A stretch of DNA of 24,331 bases, taken from IMG/VR virus record IMGVR_UViG_2778261216_000006; one strand, given 5' to 3'. The DNA comes from a virus (Duplodnaviria; Heunggongvirae; Uroviricota; Caudoviricetes). Below are positions 2,605 through 17,807 of this stretch, piece by piece (position 1 is the first letter of the stretch; each line of letters begins with the position of its first letter). The notes under the pieces were generated by a model. The model was given only the letters and a program-made list of their open reading frames with translations. It searched no databases and was not told where the DNA came from. A program made the translations under genes and the position numbers.

Positions 2605-4266
2605 TTACACCCCGCTAAATTCTTCCAGTTTCTGGCGGTGGCTGTCGCTTATATCAAAAGCAAAATCCTCATGCTCTGCCTGGAATGTACCAAACGCCAT
2701 CAGCGCCGCTACGCTCGGGTCTATCTTGTTCGGTGATTTTTTCTTGTTCGGCTTGATATTGGCGTTCGCGTCACTCTGCATCACGACGTTACTCATCGAC
2801 CAGGACAACACCGGATCGCCACGATGCACAATCACCCTGCGGTTAACAAAAACTTCGAACGATTTCGCCGCCGGACTGAATCTGAGGTAGGTTTGCGGGA
2901 ACGGCTCCACCTCAAAACCAGCCCCCTGTAATTGCGTCCTGAGATGCGTGGCGTTCCACGTATCAAAGCCCACCAGCCTGATATTAAATTTCTCCGCATC
3001 CTGCATGATGTCATCTCTGATCCGGTCGTAATCAATGCAGTCACCTGGCGTTGTGCGTATCCAGCCCGCTTTAGCCCACTGGCGATAGACAGCGCGGTTT
3101 TTATTGGCGGGGTTCTGTAGCTGGAACTCCGGCAGATAATGACGGGAAACCAGCATGATATTTTTACCGACCGGAAAGGCATAGCACACGCTGGAAATAT
3201 CGCTGGTTGATGATAAGTCCAGCCCCGCGTAACACTCCTGCCCGTGTAAATCTTCCTCCGTGAACGTTCCGGCACACTCAGCCCATGCGCCGTTACCCAT
3301 CCACGGGGTAGCCCCCTGGCACCAGATATTAAATCGCTTTGTCATCATCTCCACCCATTGCGACGGAATACCCCGCGCTTTCTGGATGGTTGAGGCCAGT
3401 TTTTCACGATCCACGGAAACATCGATGTTAGGGTTAGCCTTTATCCACATCGCCGGATCATCAACCTCGTTTTCGTCGTCCAGCTCGTAAATCAGCACAA
3501 AAATTGAATCGTTGACCTCTTCGCCGTCCAGGATCTGGCAGCAATAATCATAGTGCTGTTTACAGGTTGAAACGACGTTACTGCCCGATGTGGTAATGGC
3601 AAATAACAGCCCTTCGGGACGTGCGCCCATCCCCAGCTCAAGCGCGGAATAAACGCCGTTATCGGGGTGTAGGTGGTATTCGTCCACGATGGAAAGGCTG
3701 GGGTTTGTTCCCTCGATGGTTGCCGCTTTTGCTGCCAGCGGCTTTAACAGGCTGTTGCTTTTCGGGTGCATCACCTTGTGGGCCTGAATATTCACCCGCC
3801 TGCGTAACGGTCGGGATAAAAGGCACATCTGACGCGCATCATCAAAAACGATCCGCGCCTGGTCACGGCTCACCGCTGCGGTGTAAATATCCTGCTGCCC
3901 GTTCTCCATAATCAGAAACCAGTTAGCCAGAATCGCGGCGGTCGTGGATTTCGCATTTTTGCGCGGCACTTCGATAAAGGCGCTCGTGTATTTGCGCCGT
4001 CCGGTGGCCTTAACCTTAAAGCCGAGGATGCACGCAAAGGCGAACTGCTGCCACGGCTCCAGCTCAATGGGTCTGCCACGCATCGGCCCTTTTACGTGCG
4101 GGCACACCCTGGAAAAGGCAATAAACCGCTCCACAACCTCACGATCGAACGTGTAAAGGGGGCTTTCAAGGTCCGAAAAGTACCGTTTAACGGCCTGTTT
4201 CAGCCGTTTACAGGCCGGAATTTTGCCCGTTTTTACGTCTTCTGCGTACTTATTCCAGGCGGTCAA
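2605..4266 (-). CDS. Phage terminase large subunit
   Basis: 553-aa ORF (TTG start in track) with ATPase and nuclease regions typical of HK97-like TerL; start overlaps the TerS stop. Confidence 0.93.
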   Translation of the reverse strand: MTAWNKYAEDVKTGKIPACKRLKQAVKRYFSDLESPLYTFDREVVERFIAFSRVCPHVKGPMRGRPIELEPWQQFAFACILGFKVKATGRRKYTSAFIEVPRKNAKSTTAAILANWFLIMENGQQDIYTAAVSRDQARIVFDDARQMCLLSRPLRRRVNIQAHKVMHPKSNSLLKPLAAKAATIEGTNPSLSIVDEYHLHPDNGVYSALELGMGARPEGLLFAITTSGSNVVSTCKQHYDYCCQILDGEEVNDSIFVLIYELDDENEVDDPAMWIKANPNIDVSVDREKLASTIQKARGIPSQWVEMMTKRFNIWCQGATPWMGNGAWAECAGTFTEEDLHGQECYAGLDLSSTSDISSVCYAFPVGKNIMLVSRHYLPEFQLQNPANKNRAVYRQWAKAGWIRTTPGDCIDYDRIRDDIMQDAEKFNIRLVGFDTWNATHLRTQLQGAGFEVEPFPQTYLRFSPAAKSFEVFVNRRVIVHRGDPVLSWSMSNVVMQSDANANIKPNKKKSPNKIDPSVAALMAFGTFQAEHEDFAFDISDSHRQKLEEFSGV

Positions 4267-4606
4267 GCTCGTCCTCTTCTTCTGTTTCCGGTGGATTTTT
4301 ACGGCGGCTTATCGGGTCAAAACCGAGCAAAGAGGCCATTTTTATCATCACTCTTTCAGCGTCGGATTTTGCGCTTAATGCGGGGTTTCTGCTCTCGCCG
4401 CCCTGACTGTTAACAATGCTGAACCCGCGCGCCGCAAGGTCTGCAACGGCTTTCCGGTAAATGGAGTAGTTGACACAATACAGTTCCAGATTGCTCCAGT
4501 CGGCGGGGGTCAGGTCTCCCCGTTCCGCAAGCTGCCTAGATTTTTCCCGCCACTGCTTCACGGCGATATCATCCAGGTAGGCGGGGGCTTTCGGTGGTCT
4601 TGCCAT
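4250..4606 (-). CDS. Phage terminase small subunit (P27-family-like)
   Basis: 118 aa; LELYCVNYSIYRKA and RNPALSAKSDAERVMIKMASLLGFDP match the small-terminase signature; directly upstream of TerL. Confidence 0.85.
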   Translation of the reverse strand: MARPPKAPAYLDDIAVKQWREKSRQLAERGDLTPADWSNLELYCVNYSIYRKAVADLAARGFSIVNSQGGESRNPALSAKSDAERVMIKMASLLGFDPISRRKNPPETEEEDELDRLE

Positions 4607-4728
4607 GCTTATTTTTCGCCAGATTATTTTTCAAAAAATTCCCGTGCATAAAAATTTGAGGAGGCGTTCGGTGCCCGGCGGGGTCGGGTTTGTCCTGAAA
4701 ACGCCCCCCACCCCGTCATACAGCCTCA

Positions 4729-4911
4729 TCAGCGATTGCGGAAACATTCCATAACCTCGCGGTCACGGTCGGTTAATCGCTTCGCTGTGATGCGTTCTGC
4801 GCGTCCTGACGCTTTATCTTTATGCCCTGTTTCCTGTGTCTTCCATGCGTCACGCTGCCTTATAAGTCCACGGATAAGGCGGTTTTGTTCCCGATCATTC
4901 ATCAGCGTCAT
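4729..4911 (-). CDS. Hypothetical small charged protein (~60 aa) between HNH and TerS
   Basis: C-terminal part of track ORF 4729..5133 lying past the HNH stop (MTLMNDREQNRLIRGL...); the start is my estimate. Confidence 0.35.
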   Translation of the reverse strand: MTLMNDREQNRLIRGLIRQRDAWKTQETGHKDKASGRAERITAKRLTDRDREVMECFRNR

Positions 4912-5335
4912 ACATCCAGTTATTGCGGTTAGCGGCCCGTTCTTCCTCTTCACGAAATCCACCTGCGGCACGCTTGCTTTTTGTTGCCGGATCAAGCCAT
5001 TTCGTTTTCTGGTTATGACACGCCTGACACAATGGTTGATGGTTCCATTCGGGCCAGAAGAGAACATCATCACCGCCATTAATCGGGATAATGTGATCCA
5101 CCACCACGGCGGGCGTATATATCCCCTTCTCAAGGCATCGCACGCATAACGGGTTTTTACTCAGATACATGGCGCGGTATTTGTCCCACTGTCTGGAATA
5201 TCCACGCGCGCGGCGGTGTCCTCGTCTGGCATCCTCTGCACGCCATGCCGCCCGCCTGTGCTCTTCACACTTGCCGGATTTAACGCGCCTGTTACAGCCT
5301 GGTTCTGTGCATCGTCTTAATGGTTGCCACGGCAT
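4895..5335 (-). CDS. HNH endonuclease (phage packaging-associated)
   Basis: 146 aa; Cys-rich N-terminus, VVDHIIPINGG and CQACHNQKT motifs. Confidence 0.9.
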   Translation of the reverse strand: MPWQPLRRCTEPGCNRRVKSGKCEEHRRAAWRAEDARRGHRRARGYSRQWDKYRAMYLSKNPLCVRCLEKGIYTPAVVVDHIIPINGGDDVLFWPEWNHQPLCQACHNQKTKWLDPATKSKRAAGGFREEEERAANRNNWMYDADE

Positions 5336-5631
5336 CAGTACACCCCCACATCACGGTAAGCCGTCCAGAGTGCGCCAATCGTCATGGGTACGCGTGTTTT
5401 TGCGTTATCCGCGACAATCTGGCGATTCTCATACAGGTGAGCGATAAACATCATGCAGCCAATCTTTATGGCTGGCGTGAACTCCAGCCCGTCATCAAAG
5501 CGCCTGCCTATGTGTATCTGGCACGCCTCAAGCGATGCGGCAATGTATCCGCTGATTAACTGGTCTTCCTCGTCGCCATCGATGCGGCAATGGAGTTTCA
5601 CTTCTTCCAGGGTGATAAGTTCTTCTGTCAT
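5335..5631 (-). CDS. gp6-like head-tail connector protein
   Basis: 98 aa; LITLEEVKLHCRIDGDEEDQLISGYIAA N-terminus typical of this family. Confidence 0.8.
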   Translation of the reverse strand: MTEELITLEEVKLHCRIDGDEEDQLISGYIAASLEACQIHIGRRFDDGLEFTPAIKIGCMMFIAHLYENRQIVADNAKTRVPMTIGALWTAYRDVGVY

Positions 5632-6008
5632 TTTTCCGCGCCCTCACGACAAAGAATTTCAAGGCGTGTCCTGGCGGCATCCGGCAGCGGCTGCCCGATG
5701 ATATTCAGTACACGCCCCGCCAGCGGCCCCGTACTGACCTTTATCCGGCTGGTGGCGTTGATGTCCTTCCGGTACCGTATCCAGATCCTTACGGTACCAA
5801 TCGCCAGCTCTGCACCCGATGAAATGGCCTCCTTGCTGCTGACCATGTTCACGCTTGCCCAGAGTGTGTGACCGTCCTCCCACGTTTCGAGTATTTCGCC
5901 GGTTATATCCCTGGTCTGTTTCAGGGTCTGAATCGTTATCCTGTCACGCAGTCGCCCTATGTTCATTCCGGTTTTTCTCCCTCGCTGATTTTTACTTCCT
6001 GTTTCCAT
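5628..6008 (-). CDS. Phage head closure / head-tail adaptor protein
   Basis: 126 aa; MNIGRLRDRITIQ ... VRIWIRYR ... pattern; the true start may be the internal Met near 5966. Confidence 0.78.
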   Translation of the reverse strand: METGSKNQRGRKTGMNIGRLRDRITIQTLKQTRDITGEILETWEDGHTLWASVNMVSSKEAISSGAELAIGTVRIWIRYRKDINATSRIKVSTGPLAGRVLNIIGQPLPDAARTRLEILCREGAEK

Positions 6009-7174
6009 GCCTGGCTGAACTCATCACCACCATCACGCGGTGACAGTCCTTCACGTTCGCGGGCTTCGTTCGGACACATAACGCCGGATTTGATGCCGCG
6101 CTCATAGGTGGCAAAGCGTTCGCCAGGTGTGGCCCGTAACAGGTCCGCGCTGTCAAACTCCACCTGATACCGGATACCAGGTACAGGCGAGGCCACCAGC
6201 AGGGCGTTTTTTATCTGCTGCTCAAAGTTCGCCAGCCACGGGCGCATCGTCATGGTGAGAAATGCGCGGCTTGCCTCGCTGAAATTGCTGTAGGTGCTGT
6301 TGCTGTATTCCTGCAAAAAAATCGGCGAGACGTTGAACATTCGGGCGATGTCTTCAATGGTGAAGCGACGGGAGGCCAGCCATTCAGCATCCTGATTACT
6401 CATGCCCAGCTGCTGATAGCTCATACCCCCTTCAAGGATGGGCGTTTTTCCGGCGTTTCTGGCCCCTTTGTAGCGTTCCAGTGCGGCTAATGCCTGTTTG
6501 CCCTTCACGCCGTCCAGCCATTCGCCTGACGTGATAACCCCTGCCGCCATCATGCCATCACGCATCACGCTCGCGCCGTGGCGTTGTTGGGCCAGCCCAA
6601 GCCCCAGCGATTCGCGGCAGATGGTTACAGGTGAGCGCCCCATAAAGCCGTCATCCGTGGAGTAACGAAGGTGAAGTACTTCCCACGGTAAATAGTTGCG
6701 GGTGTTTCCGGTGTAAGCGTCAGTGATGCAGTAGCGCCAGTTGTGTTCGCCTGTCTGCTCCACGTTCACCGACTGCGGCGGGTAAGGATGTAAAGCCACC
6801 GGAAAACCATCACGCCCCCACTGAATCACCGCATAAGCATTACCGTTTAACAGGCAGTGGCGGATCATCATTCGCTTAAACTGGTAGGGAGTCTGCCACG
6901 CGTTCGGGCGCTCGTTGAGGATGTGATCGACCGGATGAGAATCAAGCCACTCGCGGGCCTCCTTCCCCTTCTCATTGCGTACCAGGTACAGGTAACACGG
7001 CATGGTAGCCACCGCCTCAGAGATGACCGTGACGGCGTTCATAACGGCGGGCAGTGATTCCGCTGTCCCCGATGATACGTACTCACCCGCCCCCGTGTTC
7101 GATGTGCCAGCCAGCGCCATAAACTCATCAAGCGTCATGCTGCGCTGCTCTTTTTTTCTTCTGAAAGGCCACAT
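5963..7174 (-). CDS. Phage portal protein, HK97 family
   Basis: 403 aa; size and conserved blocks of the portal family; lies between protease and head closure genes. Confidence 0.9.
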   Translation of the reverse strand: MWPFRRKKEQRSMTLDEFMALAGTSNTGAGEYVSSGTAESLPAVMNAVTVISEAVATMPCYLYLVRNEKGKEAREWLDSHPVDHILNERPNAWQTPYQFKRMMIRHCLLNGNAYAVIQWGRDGFPVALHPYPPQSVNVEQTGEHNWRYCITDAYTGNTRNYLPWEVLHLRYSTDDGFMGRSPVTICRESLGLGLAQQRHGASVMRDGMMAAGVITSGEWLDGVKGKQALAALERYKGARNAGKTPILEGGMSYQQLGMSNQDAEWLASRRFTIEDIARMFNVSPIFLQEYSNSTYSNFSEASRAFLTMTMRPWLANFEQQIKNALLVASPVPGIRYQVEFDSADLLRATPGERFATYERGIKSGVMCPNEAREREGLSPRDGGDEFSQAWKQEVKISEGEKPE

Positions 7175-7175
7175 A

Positions 7176-7748
7176 TCACACCCCCGCTAAATCCACCCAC
7201 CAGCGGCGATTATCCGCACGCGGCATTTTTTCGGGGTGCTGCTCATACAGGGAACGGCGGGCCAGCTCCACGCCGGAATCGGGGTAAGCCGGTACCGATG
7301 TAACGGTAATTTCGTACAGTTCCGCCACCAGCACGGTGCGCACGCATGGATCTGTTGTGGTATCCCATACATCCTTACGGGAGCGAAAGCCAAAGCTCAT
7401 CCCCGAGATGTCCCCACGCTTAACCAGTTCGATAACGTCGCGCCCTGTACTGGTATCCGGTGGGGTCAGTTCAAAGCGTAACCCTGTTTCGTCCTCTTCC
7501 AGTTTCAGCGTGCCGGAACGGGTGCGCCCCAGTAACATGCTGTGGTCATGCTCATACAGGCCGCGAACGTCATTACCCGCCGCAAGCCATTCAGTAAACG
7601 CCCCCCGCTGGAATTTTTCGTAAAACTCACCCCATAACAGTTCTGAAAGCTTATCCCAGCGAACAACGTAGCCCGTCAGCGTACCGGCTCCGCTGGTGGT
7701 GATTTCCGATGACCGGATTTCCATACTCTTCATAATTTTTTCACCCAT
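7176..7748 (-). CDS. HK97-family prohead serine protease
   Basis: 190 aa; TLTGYVVRWDKLS, HDHSMLLGRT and GMSFGFR blocks. Confidence 0.9.
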   Translation of the reverse strand: MGEKIMKSMEIRSSEITTSGAGTLTGYVVRWDKLSELLWGEFYEKFQRGAFTEWLAAGNDVRGLYEHDHSMLLGRTRSGTLKLEEDETGLRFELTPPDTSTGRDVIELVKRGDISGMSFGFRSRKDVWDTTTDPCVRTVLVAELYEITVTSVPAYPDSGVELARRSLYEQHPEKMPRADNRRWWVDLAGV

Positions 7749-7787
7749 AAAACACTAAAGGGGCTTTTAAGCCCCTTCTGTATGCTG

Positions 7788-8993
7788 TTAATCGTCGTCC
7801 TGTGGCAGTTCCAGAATCTTGATCGCGTTCGAATCCACCACGCCACCGCCTAAATATTTCTGCGTGAAAATTTTGATGAAGCCCGGCTCTGTGAGGTTGT
7901 CCGGTCTGGTGCGAACACCTGTTTCGTGATCAACAATGTAGTAACCGCGTTTGAAGTCACCCAGGGCAATAACGTTATCAGGCATAAACTCCAGATATTC
8001 GACCGGAAGGCCCAGCAACGTATCAGGATCACCCGCCTGTAAACGGTCGCGCCAGATGTAATCACCGTTCGCGTTCTTCACCTTCTGAAGTTTTGCCGCC
8101 GTCGTGGAGTTAACCACCCAGACCGCGTTTTTGCGGTATTTTTTACGTAATGCAAATTTCAGGTCGATCAACGGGTCCGCAGATGTCCACGCCAGAGATT
8201 CGGAAGGTTTAATTACCTGCAACGTACCAAAATCACGCTCTTTGTCGTTCTTCTCTGCACGGGGTACGGATAAAAAACCTTTTGCTTTTTTGTCACCGTC
8301 GCCCACAACCAGATCGCTTTCTTCGGTTTCCGTGAAGGTGTCGCCAATCTCACCCGTCAGCCATGAAAGGATGTCCACATCGGAAAAATCCACGATTTCC
8401 TGTGTGGTGCGCGGGTACGCATAGACCGGATACAGCTTAATGCTCACCTCGTTAATCTGCGGGGTGCTGGTCTGTTCGCGTGTCTTACCCTCTTCACCGT
8501 GGTTAACGGTCGCACCGCCAGCGGAAACAAGCTGCTTAAACTCGTTGCTGCTGATTTTCTTCACGGTACAGATGCGGCGCATGGTGGACTCATCCGCCAG
8601 CATTCGCATGATTTCGGTGTTCAGCTCGGGGATAACGGTATAACCACCATCAGCGGGAACGCCTGTACTTAATGCGCGGGTTTCACCCGTCAGAATGTAG
8701 TTTCGTAGTTCTGCGGGGTCAGTGGTCTGACTGCTTTTACCTGGCTTGCTGCGCTCTTCGTCTGCAATGGCTTCAAGGCGGGAAATGTCTTTATCGAGGG
8801 ATTCAGCTTTAGCGCGTAATTCGTCAAATTTTGCGCCCTCAGCATCGTTAAGACTGCGGTTTTCTTTTTCCGCGTTCTCCAGCATGTCGCGCATCTGATT
8901 TTTAATGGCGGTTTTCTGCTGGCGTAATTCGATTATTCTCGGCATAAAAAAAGTCCTGGGGTTAAGTAAGGAACTCCAGGACGCGGCAAACAC
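7788..8993 (-). CDS. Major capsid protein, HK97 family
   Basis: 401 aa; N-terminal coiled-coil delta-domain-like region, then a conserved HK97-fold body; start (GTG at 8993 or internal Met) uncertain. Confidence 0.93.
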   Translation of the reverse strand: MFAASWSSLLNPRTFFMPRIIELRQQKTAIKNQMRDMLENAEKENRSLNDAEGAKFDELRAKAESLDKDISRLEAIADEERSKPGKSSQTTDPAELRNYILTGETRALSTGVPADGGYTVIPELNTEIMRMLADESTMRRICTVKKISSNEFKQLVSAGGATVNHGEEGKTREQTSTPQINEVSIKLYPVYAYPRTTQEIVDFSDVDILSWLTGEIGDTFTETEESDLVVGDGDKKAKGFLSVPRAEKNDKERDFGTLQVIKPSESLAWTSADPLIDLKFALRKKYRKNAVWVVNSTTAAKLQKVKNANGDYIWRDRLQAGDPDTLLGLPVEYLEFMPDNVIALGDFKRGYYIVDHETGVRTRPDNLTEPGFIKIFTQKYLGGGVVDSNAIKILELPQDDD

Positions 8994-9610: not shown

Positions 9611-9859
9611 CTACTCAGCTAATTTGCTCAGCCCCATGTCTGCGTAAGTGCGATTTACTGCATTTCTCAGGTCTGCGTAGTTCTCCGTTGGCGGCTCCGG
9701 TGGCCTCTGTGCCTTCCTGGAACATTCCAGCCGTCGCATCGTAACCTGATGCCGTTCCTTGTCTGTCTCCACCAGTTGCATGACTTCACCCCATCGCGCC
9801 GACGCCCTCCGGTAAAATCCTTTCGCCTCGAGTTCCTCCGCTATGCGGTCATGTACCAT
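9611..9859 (-). CDS. PerC-family-like transcriptional regulator (82 aa)
   Basis: Start at internal Met with strong SD (GAGGGGGTGA); MVHDRIAEELEAKGFYRRASARWGEVM resembles the PerC-family N-terminus (from memory). Confidence 0.5.
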   Translation of the reverse strand: MVHDRIAEELEAKGFYRRASARWGEVMQLVETDKERHQVTMRRLECSRKAQRPPEPPTENYADLRNAVNRTYADMGLSKLAE

Positions 9860-9869
9860 CGTCACCCCC

Positions 9870-10280
9870 TCAGAACGGAATACCGTCACCGTAAGGGTCA
9901 TCGCCTCCCGCTGGTGGCTGATTACCCTGTGTGCCTGTGGTTTTGCGTCTGTTCCCGCCTGGACGTGCCGCGCGGGCACTGATTACGCTGTCTGCAATAA
10001 CCTGATACCCCCGCCGCGTTTCCCCGTTCTGTCCGGTCCACTGGCTTACCTGCATCGTGCCGGATACGCTGGCAACATCGCCTTTTTGATGTTTAGCCAG
10101 GAAATCGGCCTGTTTGCCAAATGCGATAACCGATAACCATAACGTCGCCTGTCCGTCCTGTGCCTGGCTGCATGGCAAAGATACCGCCATACGCGCCAGC
10201 GTCATCGGTGTGCCCTTGCTGGTCTGTTTTACCTGCGGGTCGTCCACCAGCCGCCCGTAAGCCGCTATCTGTGCTGTCAT
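9870..10280 (-). CDS. Single-stranded DNA-binding protein (SSB-like)
   Basis: 136 aa; OB-fold core blocks, Gly/Pro-rich linker and acidic C-terminal tip ending DGIPF; ATGA overlap with the upstream gene. Confidence 0.8.
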   Translation of the reverse strand: MTAQIAAYGRLVDDPQVKQTSKGTPMTLARMAVSLPCSQAQDGQATLWLSVIAFGKQADFLAKHQKGDVASVSGTMQVSQWTGQNGETRRGYQVIADSVISARAARPGGNRRKTTGTQGNQPPAGGDDPYGDGIPF

Positions 10281-10528
10281 GCTGTCTGCTCTCCGGTTTT
10301 AACGTTGATTGTTGTTACCTGTTCCGCTTCGGCAATCTCCCGTTCTGTCAGCGTGGCAAAGTTTGCCGCCGCTGTTGTCATGAATGCGCTTATCAGTTCG
10401 GGATGCTCCTTCGCGTATCCTTCCCCCGCGTGGCGGTCTATCGTTCTGATTGCCACCTTTAAAGCCAGTTCAGCCATATCTAACGCCTTATATTTCGGCT
10501 CTGTTCTGTCTCTGCGTTTTTGGGTCAT
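10277..10528 (-). CDS. Hypothetical protein (start uncertain, 66-84 aa)
   Basis: Track ORF 10277..10558 overlaps the iterons at its 5' end, so an internal Met (10528 or 10477) is the likely start; translationally coupled to ssb. Confidence 0.5.
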   Translation of the reverse strand: MTQKRRDRTEPKYKALDMAELALKVAIRTIDRHAGEGYAKEHPELISAFMTTAAANFATLTEREIAEAEQVTTINVKTGEQTA

Positions 10529-10540
10529 TTCTCGCAACCT

Positions 10541-10730
10541 CTCACTTTTTCGCCTCACTTTTTCAAGCGTCTCACTTCGTCGCAGTTGGGATTTTTGGTT
10601 TTTCTATGTGTGTGTTTCATAAGTATTTTTTTACCCCTCACTTTTGAGGATGTATACAGGTCGAAAAGTGAGGGAGAGCAGGCTAATTTTGGCCCTCTTT
10701 CCACCCCCCTCGCTTTTGCTCCTCACTTTT
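10541..10730. repeat. Iteron array (CTCACTTTT repeats, at least 6 copies in both orientations) with AT-rich spacer: candidate island replication origin
   Basis: Copies near 10541, 10554, 10571 (variant), 10637, 10665 (inverted), 10709 (variant), 10722; immediately downstream of the replication helicase gene. Confidence 0.55.
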
Positions 10731-12138
10731 ATAGCGGCGCTACATCATCCCCATCGATACGAATAACCCCATCTTTTTCCAGCTTGTACAGCCAGCGCCG
10801 GAAGTTTTTCATTTCATACCCCAGTTTTTTCATGTCATCACGTAACAGCGGGATCGTGCACTTGTCGCCGTTCTGTGTGCGTGAACGGATGCACCCCCAT
10901 AGCGCGGTATGGTTTTCCGTCTTGTTCCCTGCCTCCTCGATGCGCTCCAGTTCAACGGGAGGGCGCGGCTTATCCACCACCACCAGCGACGTGATTAACT
11001 CCCCGTCAGCGTCGGTAAAAAGCTCCACCACCCGCAAATCATAGGCAGCCTCTTTGAGTTCCTCCGCGTCCTTCATTTTGGTGCATGAGATAACCAGCGC
11101 TTCGCTTCCTGCGTCCTCCCTGCGTATCCGGTATTCAGCATCCAGTGATGCACGAAATGCACTGGAACCGCGCGCGCCTTTCGTCTCATCCTTGCCGGAA
11201 TGGTGAACCACCAGCACCGTGGCCCCTGTGCGTCGTTTCAGTTCGTCACACCCACGGATAAACGCCCCCATGTCGCGGGAGTCATTTTCATCATTGCCGC
11301 CAAAGCAGCGCGCCAGCGTGTCCAGAATAATCATGCGAACAGGTTTACCCGTTTCCCTCTCCACCTGACTGGCAGCAATAACCAGTTCATCAACATCAAG
11401 CGGGACAGCCGGAAAGATGGGACGGTTTACCAGATACAGATTTTTCACCTGCTCACCGTGCACAACCTCCCAGGCTTTTACACGACGCGGAACGCCGATA
11501 CCGCCTTCACCAACCACATAGAGAACAGCGCCATGCGCCACCCTGCGGCCTCCCCACTGGCGGCCCGTGGAAACGTGACACGCCCACGATCCGGCAAGGA
11601 ATGATTTATAGGAACCGCTCGCCCCGTATATGCTGCAAAGCGACGATGCCGGAATAATCCCCTTTACCACGTAATCAAGCTGTGTGTCGTATCCGGTAGA
11701 TCCAACGCTCATCGGTAGCGTGGTTTTTCGCTGGGGAATTTTTTTCATGACCAGGCTTTCCCCGCGTTCCCATGCCTCCCTAAGCCGTGGAAGCTGGTCG
11801 CTCCATTCCTCCAGCAATTCGAAATTTTCAGAAAGTAGCCGCGCCTCCTGGACTCCGGCGATCGCCAGTTTCGTGGCGATGGTTAACAGCTGCGGCTCTT
11901 CAATATTTCCGGCGCGTATCACCGTCGCCCTGTATCGCCCATCATCAACAATCTGGAGGTTATCCAGTTCGCTTAACTGATAACGCCCCAGATAAACGGG
12001 AGGGACTGGATCGCCTGCTTTTTTGGCCTGTGCAATGATGTAATGCTCTGCGAATGAGTGAGCATCAATACCCGCAAAAATAATCGCATCGGTGTATTTG
12101 TCTTTCGGTAATAGTTTTACGTTCGGTGCCAGTTTCAT
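10729..12138 (-). CDS. Replication protein, RepA-like AAA ATPase/helicase (satellite pri-rep type)
   Basis: 469 aa; Walker A (YGASGSYKSF), Walker B (RMIILDTL), VVHHSGKDETKGARGSSA block. Confidence 0.85.
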   Translation of the reverse strand: MKLAPNVKLLPKDKYTDAIIFAGIDAHSFAEHYIIAQAKKAGDPVPPVYLGRYQLSELDNLQIVDDGRYRATVIRAGNIEEPQLLTIATKLAIAGVQEARLLSENFELLEEWSDQLPRLREAWERGESLVMKKIPQRKTTLPMSVGSTGYDTQLDYVVKGIIPASSLCSIYGASGSYKSFLAGSWACHVSTGRQWGGRRVAHGAVLYVVGEGGIGVPRRVKAWEVVHGEQVKNLYLVNRPIFPAVPLDVDELVIAASQVERETGKPVRMIILDTLARCFGGNDENDSRDMGAFIRGCDELKRRTGATVLVVHHSGKDETKGARGSSAFRASLDAEYRIRREDAGSEALVISCTKMKDAEELKEAAYDLRVVELFTDADGELITSLVVVDKPRPPVELERIEEAGNKTENHTALWGCIRSRTQNGDKCTIPLLRDDMKKLGYEMKNFRRWLYKLEKDGVIRIDGDDVAPL

Positions 12139-12670: not shown

Positions 12671-12890
12671 AAATTTTCTCCCTTATTCTTTTAATGTCCT
12701 CATTAAGGATGTCTGTAACTTTTATCAGCGAGTTTTTGGCAATTATTTTTATTGTTTTAAGTTTTCTTTTGTCGTGCTCCGACTGTGATTTTCTCTCCAT
12801 GCTCTCCACCATGTGGGTAACATCAACGAGCGCACGTATCAGTATTTGCATTGCTTCTTCTGCTGCGTCCGGTGTGGTTTTATTGTGCAT
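12660..12890 (-). CDS. Hypothetical protein (76 aa), first gene of the replication operon
   Basis: Internal Met of track ORF 12660..12932 with strong SD (AGGGGGAAACCT). Confidence 0.5.
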   Translation of the reverse strand: MHNKTTPDAAEEAMQILIRALVDVTHMVESMERKSQSEHDKRKLKTIKIIAKNSLIKVTDILNEDIKRIREKICDA

Positions 12891-13122
12891 AGGTTTCCCC
12901 CTGGCGAATACGGGCGGCAAATACAGCAACACAACCGGACGGGCAACGGTTACGCGCTTCGCGTTCCGTCCAGGCGGTTACGTGGATGATTTGACGTTCT
13001 GACGCGCCAAAGGCAATAAAGCGCCAGATGTATTTATTCAGGTTGTGCGAGTCCCGCCCTTGCGGGTGTGTGGTATGATTTCTCATAGCTACCTCGATAC
13101 TATTGCTATCGTTGGTGGTTAG

Positions 13123-13156
13123 ACGCCCCGTATGTGTGCCACCACTGCGGGGCGTT
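13123..13156 (+). terminator. Conserved hairpin GACGCCCCG...CGGGGCGTT (copy 1) bounding cassette 1
   Basis: 8-bp GC-rich stem; near-identical copy at 13860-13896. Confidence 0.45.
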
Positions 13157-13167
13157 GCCTTTTGGTG

Positions 13168-13208
13168 CAAGTCACCTTTAAAGGCTATGCTACTTTCAGG
13201 TGACTTGC
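13168..13208. promoter_or_regulatory. 11-bp perfect inverted repeat GCAAGTCACCT / AGGTGACTTGC (operator-like) upstream of cassette 1
   Basis: Read directly; followed by a T-rich tract and TATACT -10-like hexamer (~13241). Confidence 0.4.
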
Positions 13209-13276
13209 ACTTCAAGCCTTTTTTTATTTTTTTTTCTGCGTATACTGAACGCCACCTAACAGTAAGGAGGCCAGTA

Positions 13277-13456
13277 ATGCCAACGGGTACAACCAACAAC
13301 AAATCACAACAAAAAACGGCTAGAGTTCCTCTAGAAGTTTTAAGCGAAATGAATTTGGTCAAAGAAGAAAACGAAACAGACGCGCAATTCATCGTTACAG
13401 CCATGCGCGGCGAAATCAAACGCCGCCAGCGCCGCAAGGCCAAAGAATCAGAATAA
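13277..13456 (+). CDS. Arc-like ribbon-helix-helix DNA-binding protein (59 aa)
   Basis: Strong SD AAGGAGG 6 nt before ATG; RVPLEVLSEMNLVKEENETDAQFIVTAM matches the Arc pattern (P-x-E-V-L ... EEN). Confidence 0.55.
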   Translation: MPTGTTNNKSQQKTARVPLEVLSEMNLVKEENETDAQFIVTAMRGEIKRRQRRKAKESE

Positions 13457-13461
13457 TCACT

Positions 13462-13505
13462 ATCAGCGCCGTGGTGTGAGGAACTCCGGCGCATTGCTTT
13501 ACAGG
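13462..13505 (+). promoter_or_regulatory. Conserved 44-bp intergenic element ATCAGCGCCGTGGTGTGAGGAACTCCGGCGCATTGCTTTACAGG (copy 1)
   Basis: Contains stem GCGCCG/CGGCGC; second copy at 14146-14189 with a single mismatch. Confidence 0.5.
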
Positions 13506-13513
13506 GCAGCACT

Positions 13514-13741
13514 ATGAACGAACACACATCATCACCGGAAAACGGCGAAAGCACGTCAACATATGAAATCATCCGGCAAAGGCAGTCAGAAGCCTGCGCC
13601 AGACTTGAGGAAGAACTAACCAGAACAAAAATACCACCACCAGCGCCGCGCTTAGTGCCACCAGAAAAATTTGCCCTTGAAGATTTTGTCGATAAATACC
13701 CACGGCGGCTTAAATCCGGCAAAAACCGACCGCCAGGATGA
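13514..13741 (+). CDS. Hypothetical small protein (75 aa), partner of the Arc-like gene
   Basis: ATG 9 nt after the conserved element; shares F-A-x-x-x-F-V-D-K-Y-P-R-R block with the 14198..14401 product. Confidence 0.4.
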   Translation: MNEHTSSPENGESTSTYEIIRQRQSEACARLEEELTRTKIPPPAPRLVPPEKFALEDFVDKYPRRLKSGKNRPPG

Positions 13742-13859
13742 GTGCACAAAACCGAACTATGAAACGGATTATTCCGTTTCCGGGGCGTTTGTGTGTGTAT
13801 AAAGAGTAAGCTATGCTCTTTTATAGCCATAATCGTTACCTCAATTAATGGTTTGGTTA

Positions 13860-13902
13860 GACGCCCCGTATGTGTTCCCATCACTGCGGGGCGTTGTTTT
13901 TT
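13860..13902 (+). terminator. Conserved hairpin GACGCCCCG...CGGGGCGTT plus T-run (copy 2), between cassettes
   Basis: Stem followed by GTTGTTTTTTG. Confidence 0.5.
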
Positions 13903-13945
13903 GTGCTAGTTGTGTGTAATGTGTATATACACATAAACACATTAT

Positions 13946-14140
13946 ATGGGTGTAATTGACGTGTCAACACACAAAAATGAAAGGCGTGGTAATCCTCCTT
14001 TCCAGTTCCGTTTAGATCCTGACTTACGGGAAAAGATGGAAAAAGCACAACAACAAGACGGTGATGACTCTTTAGCTGCTTGGATAAAACGAATAATCCG
14101 AAAAGAATTACAGCAACGCGGTATTGAACCCAAAGAATAA
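13946..14140 (+). CDS. Arc-like ribbon-helix-helix DNA-binding protein (59-64 aa)
   Basis: PPFQFRLDPDLREKMEKAQQQDGDDSLAAWIKRIIRKE follows the Arc pattern (from memory); start ATG 13946 or GTG 13961; palindrome ATGTGTATATACACAT just upstream. Confidence 0.55.
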   Translation: MGVIDVSTHKNERRGNPPFQFRLDPDLREKMEKAQQQDGDDSLAAWIKRIIRKELQQRGIEPKE

Positions 14141-14197
14141 AAAACATCAGCGCCGTGGCGTGAGGAACTCCGGCGCATTGCTTTACAGGTACACACA

Positions 14198-14401
14198 ATG
14201 ACCAATAAAGAATCAACCAATACACCATCGCAAAAAACGAACAGAGAGCACGAAAATATGGCGCTCGAGCATGAATCAGAAAGATTCGCTCCATGCGCTT
14301 TTGTCCTTGATGAGTTTCTAAAAAAATATTCACGTTCTGAACGGATGAAAATGGCAGCACAATACGGCCCCAACAAGCAAGGTAATTGCCCACCAGCCTG
14401 A
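14198..14401 (+). CDS. Hypothetical small protein (67 aa), paralogue of the 13514..13741 product
   Basis: Same position relative to the conserved element; shared FxxxxFVLDEFLKKYSR block. Confidence 0.4.
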   Translation: MTNKESTNTPSQKTNREHENMALEHESERFAPCAFVLDEFLKKYSRSERMKMAAQYGPNKQGNCPPA

Positions 14402-14473
14402 TAGCGGCTATCATTCCCGTGCTTATGTTTGGGATCACATACACATAAGGCGCAGCAGGTTAATTGTTCAGAA

Positions 14474-14506
14474 AGGCGGCTCCATATCGGGGCCGCTTTT
14501 TTTATG
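14474..14506 (+). terminator. Rho-independent terminator ending the plus-strand cassettes
   Basis: GCGGC...GCCGC stem followed by TTTTTTT. Confidence 0.55.
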
Positions 14507-14644
14507 CCTGAAAAACCCCAATTTTGTTGTTTTTCAGTTTCACCAGGGCGAACGAATCCCCGCCCACGTTCGGGCGCATATTCAATCTTCATAGTTATAT
14601 CTCTGTATTAGTGGATGTGTGGCGACTGTGTGCCGCCAGTCTTT

Positions 14645-15207: not shown

Positions 15208-16458
15208 TTATTTTCTTCTGGCTGCTGGTAGTGCGGTTACGTTTTCATGTGTTCCCGCCAGTATCCCTAACCGCTCCGTCCACATATCCAGCGCATTGCG
15301 TTTAGCATCCAGATAACGGGAATGATTATAAACTCGCTGCATTCCTGGCATCTGGTGGCCTGTAAGCTGCTCCACGACGTGCGGATCAACGCCTAAATCG
15401 TTCAGCATGGTTGTAAAGGTGCGCCGGATGTCATGCAGTGACCAGTGAGGGTGTTTAAGCCTCCTGTGCGCTAATCTGCCGTACTGCGACACGCTGGTTT
15501 CCTGTTTCACTTCCCCCAGCAATAAGCCCGTGTGCCTGTTCTGCTCCACCAGCTGCGTGATGAACGGCAGTATCGCTTCCGGTATGGGCCGGAATATGGC
15601 TACCTTCGTTTTACTGTGCTCCTTCGGAACGGTCCAGAGCATTTCGGTAAAATCCCACTCGCCGATCTCAGATAACCTAAGTTCGACCGTCCGGCATCCG
15701 AACACAATCAGGAGGCGGATTAGCGCGATGTAGTAGGGGGAGAATATTTTTTTGTCCAGTGCCTGCAATAATTCGCCAAGTTCTTTGTTGCTTAAGACAC
15801 GCTCGCTTATATCCGGTTTTTTCCCAACGTCAGCCACACTCATATCATCAAGAACGTTGCTGATTGCATAGCGCCGCTTCCTGCAGAACTTAAGCGCCTG
15901 CTTGCATGTCTGTAGCAGGAACCCGGCGGAAACAGGGGCTTTCTTTGCCACCCGATCAAAACAGGCCAGCCAGTGCCGTAGCTCGCATTTATCCAGCGGC
16001 ATAGGGCCAATGTGCTGTATTACGTGATTATTTAGCCGCTTTTTCAGTGGGTCATAATCCACACGGTTTTCCTTTGCGTACGACTCAAGCCAGTAGGTGA
16101 GCGCATCGCCAACCGTTACAGGCTTTAACGCTTCCTGTACGGAGTAATTCATCTCATGGCGTGGATTTTTCCCTTCTGCCAGCCATGCACGACACTGGGC
16201 GGCTTTTTCCCTGGCTGATTTCAGGCTCAGATCAGGATAATTTCCCAGCTTAATGCGTTCCGGTGGTGCCCCCCTTCCCGCTCCGGCCCTGTAAGTGAAA
16301 TACCAGGTTAAAAGGCCGCTGGTTGAATGCCTGACACTCAGGTTTCCACCGTCATTAAGAAAGGCTGTTTTTTGGGCGGGTGTGCCGTTGATTTTCCTTA
16401 GCTGTGTATCGCTCAGTTTGTTAAGTGCTCTGCTCATAATTTTGAATCCGGTCATCAC
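15208..16458 (-). CDS. int: Tyrosine recombinase/integrase, P4-like family
   Basis: 416 aa; N-terminal arm-binding-like region, catalytic-domain blocks (HDIRRTF, LGHQMPG-type); start codon uncertain (GTG 16458, ATG 16455 or 16437). Confidence 0.94.
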   Translation of the reverse strand: MMTGFKIMSRALNKLSDTQLRKINGTPAQKTAFLNDGGNLSVRHSTSGLLTWYFTYRAGAGRGAPPERIKLGNYPDLSLKSAREKAAQCRAWLAEGKNPRHEMNYSVQEALKPVTVGDALTYWLESYAKENRVDYDPLKKRLNNHVIQHIGPMPLDKCELRHWLACFDRVAKKAPVSAGFLLQTCKQALKFCRKRRYAISNVLDDMSVADVGKKPDISERVLSNKELGELLQALDKKIFSPYYIALIRLLIVFGCRTVELRLSEIGEWDFTEMLWTVPKEHSKTKVAIFRPIPEAILPFITQLVEQNRHTGLLLGEVKQETSVSQYGRLAHRRLKHPHWSLHDIRRTFTTMLNDLGVDPHVVEQLTGHQMPGMQRVYNHSRYLDAKRNALDMWTERLGILAGTHENVTALPAARRK

Positions 16459-16618: not shown

Positions 16619-16685
16619 ATACTTCACGCATTACGTTAAGCATCCGTTATAATCGGTTGCAGATACCAGCCTGTGGATGCTTAAC

Positions 16686-17807
16686 ATGGAATACCAACTC
16701 ACTCTTAACTGGCCCGATTTTCTTGAACGTCACTGGCAGAAACGCCCGGTGGTGTTAAAACGCGGCTTTAATAATTTTATTGACCCGATCTCTCCAGACG
16801 AGTTGGCGGGTCTGGCGATGGAAAGCGAAGTTGACAGTCGACTGGTCAGTCACCAGGATGGCAAATGGCAGGTCAGCCACGGCCCGTTCGAAAGCTACGA
16901 TCATCTCGGTGAAACCAACTGGTCATTACTGGTACAGGCAGTGAACCACTGGCATGAGCCGACCGCCGCGCTGATGCGACCGTTCCGTGAACTACCGGAC
17001 TGGCGTATTGATGATCTGATGATCTCTTTTTCTGTACCGGGCGGCGGCGTCGGCCCGCATCTCGATCAGTACGACGTGTTTATCATTCAGGGTACCGGTC
17101 GTCGTCGCTGGCGAGTGGGCGAAAAGCTGCAAATGAAACAGCACTGTCCGCACCCGGATCTGTTACAGGTCGATCCGTTCGAAGCCATCATCGATGAAGA
17201 GCTGGAGCCTGGCGATATTCTTTATATTCCGCCAGGATTCCCGCATGAAGGCTACGCGCTGGAAAATGCGATGAACTATTCCGTGGGTTTTCGCGCGCCA
17301 AATACGCGGGAATTAATTAGCGGATTTGCCGATTATGTGCTGCAACGTGAACTGGGCGGCAACTACTACAGCGATCCGGATGTTCCACCTCGCGCTCATC
17401 CTGCGGACGTTCTGCCGCAAGAGATGGATAAACTGCGTGAGATGATGCTCGAATTGATCAACCAGCCGGAACACTTTAAGCAATGGTTTGGCGAGTTTAT
17501 ATCCCAGTCACGTCATGAACTGGATATCGCGCCGCCGGAACCGCCTTATCAGCCAGATGAAATCTACGATGCGCTGAAACAAGGTGAAGTGCTGGTGCGC
17601 CTGGGTGGTCTGCGCGTATTGCGCATTGGCGACGACGTGTATGCCAATGGTGAGAAGATCGATTCCCCGCACCGTCCGGCACTGGATGCACTCGCCAGCA
17701 ACATTGCGCTGACTGCGGAGAATTTTGGCGATGCGCTGGAAGATCCGTCATTCCTCGCGATGCTCGCGGCGCTGGTCAATAGCGGGTATTGGTTCTTCGA
17801 AGGGTAA
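16686..17807 (+). CDS. roxA: Ribosomal protein L16 arginine hydroxylase (JmjC/cupin oxygenase) RoxA/YcfD
   Basis: Protein MEYQLTLNWPDFLERHWQKRPVVL... recognised as YcfD; track ORF starts 3 codons upstream. Confidence 0.93.
   Translation: MEYQLTLNWPDFLERHWQKRPVVLKRGFNNFIDPISPDELAGLAMESEVDSRLVSHQDGKWQVSHGPFESYDHLGETNWSLLVQAVNHWHEPTAALMRPFRELPDWRIDDLMISFSVPGGGVGPHLDQYDVFIIQGTGRRRWRVGEKLQMKQHCPHPDLLQVDPFEAIIDEELEPGDILYIPPGFPHEGYALENAMNYSVGFRAPNTRELISGFADYVLQRELGGNYYSDPDVPPRAHPADVLPQEMDKLREMMLELINQPEHFKQWFGEFISQSRHELDIAPPEPPYQPDEIYDALKQGEVLVRLGGLRVLRIGDDVYANGEKIDSPHRPALDALASNIALTAENFGDALEDPSFLAMLAALVNSGYWFFEG

Follow-up and report, generated by a model that had tools for sequence, protein, structure and literature searches.

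A probable iteron replication origin directly behind rep in a capsid-forming phage-inducible chromosomal island of Escherichia coli

Introduction

In phage-inducible chromosomal islands (PICIs) and Staphylococcus aureus pathogenicity islands (SaPIs), the published origin layout consists of two sets of iterons around an A+T-rich stretch, directly 3' of the rep gene (PMC6092414, PMC9371898). In SaPIs, 6–12 iterons right after rep are read by the C-terminal winged helix of Rep (Qiao et al., 2022, PMC9371898), and in Escherichia coli the rep-ori segment of EcCICFT073 supports plasmid maintenance that depends on both rep and ori (PMC6092414). The EDL933 rep has been stated to be identical to that of EcCICFT073 (10.1101/2022.09.08.507074). 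Capsid-forming PICIs (cf-PICIs) are islands of 10–18 kb with integrase, regulation and replication modules, which encode their own capsid, protease, portal, connectors, HNH protein and small (TerS) and large (TerL) terminase, and lack genes for lysis as well as a full tail module (10.1101/2025.02.11.637232). In addition, cf-PICIs are induced by a helper phage and make use of helper tails. Here, we describe a repeat array in a 24,331-nucleotide stretch of viral DNA (Caudoviricetes; IMG/VR record IMGVR_UViG_2778261216_000006), hereafter the window, in which such an island carries the array immediately behind the gene for a predicted initiator-helicase, Rep. The segment 10529–10731 is very likely the vegetative replication origin of this cf-PICI, read by the product of the adjacent gene.

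SaPI origins were reportedly the subject of work by Ubeda et al. in 2007. Plasmid RSF1010 has iterons as well as an A+T-rich stretch in its oriV; reading of the 20-bp iterons falls to a separate protein, RepC, and priming at the ssi sites to RepB'. The initiators RepA of pPS10, RepE of F and pi of R6K use a winged helix to read direct repeats beside an A+T-rich unwinding element, have no helicase domain, and depend on DnaA boxes and on DnaB/DnaC. The origins served by SV40 large T antigen and papillomavirus E1 contain an inverted pair of short elements around a central palindrome, next to an A+T-rich tract, and their initiator is a hexameric helicase.

Results

The repeat array

All coordinates refer to the window; rep is encoded on the minus strand, and positions written as +n are counted after the rep stop codon. 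The rep TAA stop lies at 10731–10729 and is followed by an intergenic stretch of 200 bp, up to the ATG (10528) of a gene for a protein of 83 amino acids (aa). Seven repeat units lie at 10541–10730, five of which are exact copies of AAAAGTGAG(G), one of them inverted, and two are variants. The exact copies are found on the minus strand at 10722–10730, 10637–10645, 10554–10562 and 10541–10549, and on the plus strand at 10664–10672 (the inverted copy); the variants are AAAAGCGAG at 10709–10717 and CGAAGTGAG at 10571–10579. The 8-mer AAAGTGAG occurs six times in the window (five of these within the 190-bp array) against 0.62 expected, a number reached in none of 100 shuffles. The units form a first set of four (10635–10730) and a second set of three (10541–10579), and the G+C content between them falls to 28% at 10585–10634 and 32% at 10600–10649, compared with 51% for the whole window. 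The inverted copy and the next direct copy together make a perfect 11-bp inverted repeat (10635–10645 and 10664–10674) with 18 nt between the arms. The elements of the array, with their conservation in related loci, are as follows.

10721–10730, minus strand: iteron 1, AAAAGTGAGG; overlaps the rep stop; positions +0 to +3 filled in nearly all related loci
10708–10717, minus strand: iteron 2 (variant), AAAAGCGAGG; position +11 to +15 kept in relatives
10664–10674, plus strand: iteron 3, the sole inverted unit, AAAAGTGAGGG; practically all related loci, of any class, have an inverted iteron at +41 to +58
10651–10658, no strand: palindrome TGTATACA, centre of the inverted pair of iterons 3 and 4
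10635–10645, minus strand: iteron 4, AAAAGTGAGGG; partner of iteron 3; +82 to +87 conserved
10580–10634 (55 nt), no strand: A+T-rich spacer, candidate DNA-unwinding element
10571–10579, minus strand: iteron 5 (variant), CGAAGTGAG; position +153 conserved
10553–10562, minus strand: iteron 6, AAAAGTGAGG; position about +170 conserved
10541–10549, minus strand: iteron 7, AAAAGTGAG followed by AGG; position about +183 conserved

A preliminary description of this stretch had counted at least six units (two variant, one inverted) and an AT-rich spacer, in an array that abuts the rep stop downstream of rep. Its coordinates proved accurate: there are seven units, iteron 1 overlaps the stop on the downstream side of rep on the minus strand, and the spacer has the low G+C content given above for 10585–10634.

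The last iteron (GTGAGAGG; region 10529–10552) also serves as a Shine–Dalgarno-like run of purines, located 9 nt upstream of the start codon (ATG) of the 83-aa gene. Because the first iteron overlaps the rep stop and the last coincides with this stretch, the putative origin is packed, with no free sequence at either end.

Repeat classes in related loci

Across genera, one genome per species was scanned with an alignment of Rep homologues as query, which returned 80 loci. The survey covered 70 Enterobacterales loci with a complete or nearly complete Rep relative, in each of which a 260-nt stretch starting 12 nt before the end of the rep stop was examined. All but one (69/70) contained at least three copies, from three to ten, of a single core, namely GTGAGG, GTGCGGC, GTGGGG or GTGGGGG. 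A second class was essentially absent from each locus, apart from single stray matches and the overlap between the closely related cores GTGGGG and GTGGGGG. The loci came from E. coli, Xenorhabdus, Citrobacter, Kosakonia, Pantoea, Serratia, Pectobacterium, Morganella and others, and the classes were distributed as follows.

GTGAGG: E. coli, Xenorhabdus and one Rosenbergiella
GTGCGGC: Citrobacter, Leclercia, Kosakonia, Phytobacter, Enterobacter soli and Kluyvera
GTGGGG(A): Kluyvera, Pantoea, Superficieibacter and Trabulsiella
GTGGGGG: Serratia, Pectobacterium, Morganella, Erwinia, Dickeya and others

The positions of the units are nearly alike in all classes. On the rep-proximal side, direct units lie at about +0–3, +11–15 and +21–25, an inverted unit at about +41–58 and a further direct unit at about +72–87; a spacer of about 55 nt follows, and then the distal direct units at about +132–153, +157–172 and +169–184 and, in some loci, about +192. 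Across classes, about 18 nt lie between the arms of the inverted pair, and their centre is TGTATATA-like; in 17 of 17 representative loci, which include all iteron classes, the pair encloses a TGTATATA/TATATACA-like centre, which the alignment also shows to be conserved. For the GTGAGG and GTGGGGG classes, the A+T-richest 40-nt window begins at about +90 to +110. Different words thus occupy the same places and change together in each locus, as is expected for sites read by a protein that has itself changed.

The inner spacers of the GTGCGGC, GTGCGCG and GTGGGG classes share a conserved GAAACCCGCnnnATTACTGG motif followed by a T/A-run (loci L032, L035, L043, L052, L080, L084, L087 and L090). 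A similar string, GAAAGCCGCGCCATTACTGA, is present at 3790–3815 of L086, within the origin of an island whose rep belongs to an unrelated family. The motif could act as a signal for a host factor or for priming; the window's own spacer lacks it.

Rep and its C-terminal domain

10729–12138, minus strand: rep, predicted 469-aa initiator-helicase; PF13481 (AAA_25), E = 3.7e-43; phrog_2850 over the full length
10732–10926, minus strand: winged-helix-coding part of rep (aa 405–469), proposed iteron reader; N445 just before the recognition helix (aa 446–455)

Rep is full length and retains all residues that are invariant in its family. It is composed of an N-terminal domain of unknown function (about aa 1–130), a RepA/AAA_25 RecA-fold ATPase core (about aa 150–390) and a C-terminal winged helix (aa 405–469). 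The PF13481 match spans aa 151–318 and scores 147.9 bits against a gathering cutoff of 27; close relatives are named 'helicase RepA family protein' at NCBI, and the sole sequence match in the PDB is RepA of RSF1010 (1g8y, E = 0.0097). Pfam gave no match in the N-terminal 135 aa or the C-terminal 75 aa of Rep, and NCBIfam returned sub-threshold RadA matches only.

AlphaFold modelled both end domains with confidence, the N-terminal one (aa 1–125) as an alpha/beta domain and the C-terminal one at aa 405–469. The latter, modelled alone, reached a predicted local distance difference test score (pLDDT) of 88.5, with helices at its residues 14–29, 35–44 and 52–61 and strands at 65–68 and 71–74 (H-H-H-beta-beta). 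Foldseek matched it to the LexA DNA-binding domain, IdeR/DtxR, MexR, linker histone H1, a winged-helix domain of an ORC subunit and DnaD-N, with template modelling (TM) scores of 0.6–0.75, probabilities of 0.9–0.99 and E-values of only 0.08–0.3; weak E-values are usual for a domain of 65 residues. The C terminus of Rep is predicted with confidence, on this structural model, to be a winged-helix DNA-binding domain. The same search with the whole Rep model returned RadA/Rad51 RecA cores only and gave no information on the end domains.

Rep is mosaic in its N-terminal domain (11734–12138, aa 1–135). From the putative origin through Rep aa 130–469, many E. coli relatives show about 95% identity, but they are divergent over the first 130 aa. 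In other genera, a primase module replaces the N-terminal 130 residues and many relatives have 680–730 aa; the relative P0120, for example, contains PF08273 (Prim_Zn_Ribbon) and PF13362 (Toprim_3). The presence of a primase module in Rep relatives is in keeping with a role in replication, and points to recruitment of a primase in trans by the short form present in the window.

The winged helix and the repeat class change together

In an alignment of the C-terminal domain, the residue before the recognition helix (445 in the Rep of the window) follows the iteron class.

N at residue 445: GTGAGG, 26 of 26 loci
S at residue 445: GTGCGGC, 8 of 8 loci
H at residue 445: GTGGGG, 6 of 6 loci, plus two GTGGGGGC loci
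K at residue 445: GTGGGGG, 27 of 27 loci

Three loci fetched once the rule had been formulated all fit. A later-fetched Salmonella Rep has N at 445 and AAAGTGAGG iterons, and two later-fetched Reps have G at 445 and a further class, GTGCGCG.

A neighbour-joining tree of the last 80 residues, which cover the winged helix, grouped the loci strictly by iteron class, whereas the classes were interleaved in a tree of the ATPase core. In the latter, L043 (GTGCGGC) paired with L034 (GTGGGG) and L035 (GTGGGG) with L052 (GTGGGGG), L032 and L037 (GTGCGGC) grouped with L038 (GTGGGG), and L084 (GTGAGG) fell among GTGCGGC and GTGGGG loci. Since the ATPase-core tree mixes the classes and the winged-helix tree does not, the association with class reflects more than shared ancestry. 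The contrast indicates that the winged-helix domain and the iterons have been exchanged together several times, recombining as a unit. The iteron class follows neither the ATPase core nor the neighbouring genes. We propose that the winged-helix domain reads the iterons, by the same logic as in SaPI Reps (PMC9371898).

The same slot with other Reps, and the same Rep with other modules

The gene order around the array is DUF4222 – rep – repeat array – 83-aa gene – ssb – perC, with the rep region on the minus strand. In EDL933, the DUF4222, 83-aa, ssb and perC neighbours are shared, but rep encodes a 710-aa DUF927 protein and the slot after it holds a dozen TAACCCGCA/TGCGGGTTA units. The OkiPb01677 island, which is inserted next to tqsA/pntB, has the same neighbours around a 582-aa 'DNA primase family protein' as rep, followed by GGTAGAGG units. 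The 83-aa gene of EDL933 is about 92% identical to that of the window, although the iterons there are entirely different. With the same neighbours, another rep and other repeats, it follows that the repeats go with rep and not with the neighbouring genes. Because the EDL933 rep is stated to be that of EcCICFT073, whose origin was tested, the array occupies a slot in which an origin has experimental support. Neither the 83-aa nor the DUF4222 protein is retained as a candidate iteron reader, since the genes of both are also found beside the unrelated TAACCCGCA (EDL933) and GGTAGAGG (OkiPb01677) arrays.

Among 5426 complete E. coli genomes, queried with the 212-bp putative origin, it was present in 491, in 377 of them at an identity of at least 95%. 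The divergent copies L002 (rep 83% identical) and L003 (rep 80%) keep AAAGTGAGG units in the same places while the intervening sequence has changed. The rep-ori module also recurs, at 83–98% identity, in islands with different packaging modules: the head genes comprise a decoration protein and major capsid in the O157 strain Z1832, whereas EC42405 and STEC1587 have a ClpP–capsid fusion and an enterotoxigenic E. coli (ETEC) strain has an SDH protease. The INPHARED phage collection contained no match to rep plus ori.

In the ETEC island L003, the first origin-like block is followed about 100 bp later, at 2720–2900 (minus strand), by a second, partial one. This comprises another inverted iteron pair, CCTCACTTTT ... 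AAAAAGTGAG, around TATATATA, together with further GTGAGG copies.

The array as a probable origin, and its alternatives

As in described PICI origins, the array is located immediately 3' of the initiator gene (PMC6092414). It has two iteron sets with an A+T-rich region between them, and on comparative grounds (rep family and winged-helix domain) its iterons are specific to the cognate Rep. The preliminary description had read it as an iteron origin of PICI/SaPI layout served by the adjacent Rep; what this predicts at the level of sequence, that is, the layout, the cf-PICI context, the covariation of classes and the swaps within the slot, was borne out in full. Taken together, the comparative evidence argues strongly for origin function.

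Other kinds of element were sought in the same region. Structured RNA was rejected, with 0 Rfam hits in the window at gathering thresholds and an RNA fold z-score of -0.79, as was a terminator, since the intrinsic terminator scan gave 0 hits and no T-run follows the 11-bp inverted repeat. A sigma-70 promoter scan of 10200–11000 also gave 0 hits. At 10480–10800 there was no DnaA box (TTATNCACA, one mismatch allowed), no integration host factor (IHF) consensus and no GATC; a DnaA-dependent plasmid-type oriV is not supported, given the missing DnaA box. Loose Fis-like A-tract matches were the only hits of the host-factor site search and were left uninterpreted.

The repeats might instead, or in addition, be operator or enhancer sites for the downstream operon (83-aa gene, ssb, perC and capsid genes), at which Rep or some other regulator of the island would set the timing of late expression. 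In favour of this, the next gene lies directly downstream of the array, whose last copy overlaps the Shine–Dalgarno-like stretch, several regulators are encoded on the island, among them PerC and an AlpA-like helix-turn-helix (HTH) protein, and plasmid iteron initiators often autoregulate. However, 10200–11000 contains neither a sigma-70-like promoter nor a terminator, and the repeats vary with rep family and winged helix while the downstream, DUF4222 and regulatory genes stay constant. The same array also follows rep in Xenorhabdus, Serratia and other loci with different downstream genes, and a purely regulatory role would leave the conserved A+T-rich or palindromic centre unexplained. We regard control of the operon as an unlikely explanation of the array; a secondary regulatory effect of Rep binding may accompany its role as an origin. 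Five exact copies that include the inverted pair, a full-length Rep with every family-invariant residue, and an origin variant kept at an identity of at least 95% in about 377 complete E. coli genomes are difficult to reconcile with a decayed or inactive remnant, from which the island would not replicate autonomously or would do so only through helper or host functions. Such decay would account for the two variant units of seven and for three further positions that hold iterons in relatives and are degenerate here, and seems somewhat less probable again than operon control. As the DNA of the island is packaged by a TerS and TerL that it encodes itself, and terminase sites are often arrays of short repeats, the array might also be a packaging site (cos/pac, with sites bound by the small terminase). 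EDL933, however, has the same kinds of neighbouring and head genes and entirely different repeats in the slot, the same repeats (83–98% identity) occur in islands with other head modules, and the array is about 6 kb away from terS (4250–4606). Of the explanations considered here, packaging is the one to which we give least credence, and it is very improbable.

Several observations weigh against the interpretation as a Rep-read origin. The window has fewer intact iterons than its relatives, with two of its seven units variant: five exact and two variant units compare with 8–9 units in L002, L088 and Xenorhabdus. The GGTGAGGA-type positions at 10531–10539 (about +193), 10696–10704 (about +25) and about 10585–10593 (about +142) are degenerate here and likewise in the O157 variant, whereas relatives have intact iterons there. 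With fewer intact iterons, the copy in the window could be weakened. SaPI origins have at least two iterons on each side, with the two sides in opposite directions (PMC9371898), whereas all units here have the same orientation except that at 10664–10674, which is paired inside the rep-proximal set. An A+T-rich unwinding element is not a general feature of the family, since in three classes (GTGCGGC, GTGCGCG and GTGGGG) the A+T-richest part of the region lies outside the inner spacer. The correlation of residue with class spans only about five classes, and a contact of residue 445 with the DNA bases is putative. The ATPase core of Rep is poorly modelled (pLDDT <50 over much of aa 130–397), because the alignment is shallow; its predicted helicase activity, hexameric and 5'–3', is drawn from family membership, and its Walker A motif is atypical (GASGSYKS), yet invariant across the family.

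The island and its neighbouring genes

The island spans about 15 kb between phoQ (1–1461) and roxA, also named ycfD (16677–17807), and encodes a tyrosine integrase (15208–16458). Homology to annotated relatives identifies small regulatory genes that are Icd-like, YlcI/YnfO-like and AlpA-like HTH. An HK97-type head and packaging module at 2605–8993 comprises the major capsid, protease, portal, head closure (Hc1), adaptor (Ad1), HNH, TerS and TerL; terS itself is at 4250–4606, about 6 kb from the repeat array. No tail or lysis genes were found among the large open reading frames (ORFs) of the island, the small ORFs having been scanned non-exhaustively. This gene content agrees with that described for cf-PICIs (10.1101/2025.02.11.637232; 10.1101/2022.09.08.507074), and on that basis the island is a cf-PICI, an E. 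coli phage satellite located between phoQ and roxA. Downstream of the array lie the following genes.

10277–10528, minus strand: gene for the 83-aa protein, function unknown; phrog_1231; ATG at 10528; conserved neighbour
9870–10280, minus strand: ssb, island-encoded single-strand DNA-binding protein (SSB); PF00436, E = 5.8e-17; phrog_44

The island SSB is likely an accessory of the replicon. A gene for a PerC-family regulator (9611–9979) is located two genes downstream of the putative origin; some PerC homologues of PICIs switch on the locus of enterocyte effacement (LEE) pathogenicity island (PMC6092414). Other insertion sites are used by islands with the same rep-ori module, such as thiM/rcnR in STEC1587. 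As insertion sites vary among islands that share the module, integration and replication modules appear to assort independently.

A 68-nt direct repeat of 85% identity, with copies 684 bp apart at 13450–13517 and 14134–14201, marks a tandem duplication in the regulatory region. The duplicated unit is a two-gene cassette on the plus strand, made up of a YlcI/YnfO-family gene and a hypothetical gene (by homology to L086). The long minus-strand ORFs at 12880–13884 and 13942–14592 in the duplicated region look spurious.

Discussion

Proposed course of initiation

The following course of events would be consistent with the sequence and structure predictions. A helper phage would induce the island, which would excise; Rep would then bind the AAAAGTGAGG iterons via its C-terminal winged helix, and N445, at the start of the recognition helix, would contribute to base specificity. 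Rep would gather on both sides of the 28% G+C spacer, at the proximal set (two direct units and the inverted pair around TGTATACA) and at the distal set (three direct units), and the duplex would melt at the spacer or at the palindrome. The RepA/DnaB-like RecA-fold motor of Rep would form a ring on the exposed single strand as the replicative helicase, and the fork would be completed by the island SSB, host primase and DNA polymerase III. Replication would, on this model, depend on Rep.

A more specific proposal, which we hold tentatively and consider rather doubtful, is that Rep is a loader-free RecA-fold RepA/DnaB-like (superfamily 4) helicase that recognizes its own origin via the fused winged helix and assembles at the conserved inverted pair bracketing TGTATACA. 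Its specificity would be reprogrammable by a swap of the winged helix, largely through residue 445 (N, S, G, H and K with GTG followed by AGG, CGGC, CGCG, GGGG and GGGGG, respectively). If true, this would be a bacterial counterpart of the double-hexamer loading of SV40 T antigen and E1, and would define replication-incompatibility classes among the phage satellites of Enterobacterales.

Significance

The kind of origin is very probably one already known, a PICI/SaPI-style iteron origin, and the current picture of PICI replication is unchanged by the finding. What goes beyond it, with modest extra value, is the co-swapping of winged helix and iteron and the conserved inverted pair around the TGTATACA palindrome. 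The putative cis-acting half of the replicon is located for a satellite family carried by approximately one in eleven complete E. coli genomes, many O157:H7 strains among them. In addition, five iteron classes, each with a matching winged-helix variant, offer a testable pairing of protein and DNA specificity, which could serve to predict cross-replication or incompatibility of co-resident satellites or to build orthogonal Rep/ori pairs.

Among the papers searched, none was found that describes this Rep/iteron pair, although Fig. 2a of PMC6092414, which presents the iterons of several E. coli PICIs, could already depict it; the supplements of PMC6092414 contain no iteron sequences. A full-text literature search for AAAAGTGAG and CTCACTTTT returned only unrelated primer or sequence coincidences.

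Comparison with known systems

The pri-rep-ori of EcCICFT073 and EcCIEDL933 (Fillol-Salom et al., 2018, PMC6092414) is the closest in arrangement. It occupies the same slot between DUF4222 and the 83-aa gene, ssb and perC, and its origin likewise lies directly 3' of rep, with two iteron sets plus a spacer. The Rep there is a DUF927 protein of 710 aa, whereas a RepA/AAA_25 protein of 469 aa is found here; its iterons are TAACCCGCA, at least a dozen in number, in an intergenic region of 370 bp compared with 200 bp in the window. SaPIs are similar in having the origin directly after rep, 6–12 short iterons, an A+T-rich centre, and a Rep that combines initiator and helicase with a C-terminal winged helix. 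However, SaPI Reps belong to AAA+ superfamily 3 or 6, with 3'–5' polarity, whereas the predicted core here is of the RecA-fold RepA/DnaB-like type (AAA_25), and their iterons have 5–6 nt, compared with 9–10 nt here.

Among plasmids, RSF1010 (IncQ) has a helicase core of the same family as Rep, but in the window helicase and winged helix form one protein, and there is no sign of a separate initiator. The initiators of pPS10, F and R6K differ in that the Rep described here is predicted to carry its own motor, and its putative origin has no DnaA box even with one mismatch. By analogy, the inverted iteron pair around a palindrome, the A+T-rich tract and the predicted initiator-helicase resemble the SV40 T antigen and E1 origins. 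Those eukaryotic viruses have an unrelated origin-binding domain and a superfamily 3 AAA+ motor.

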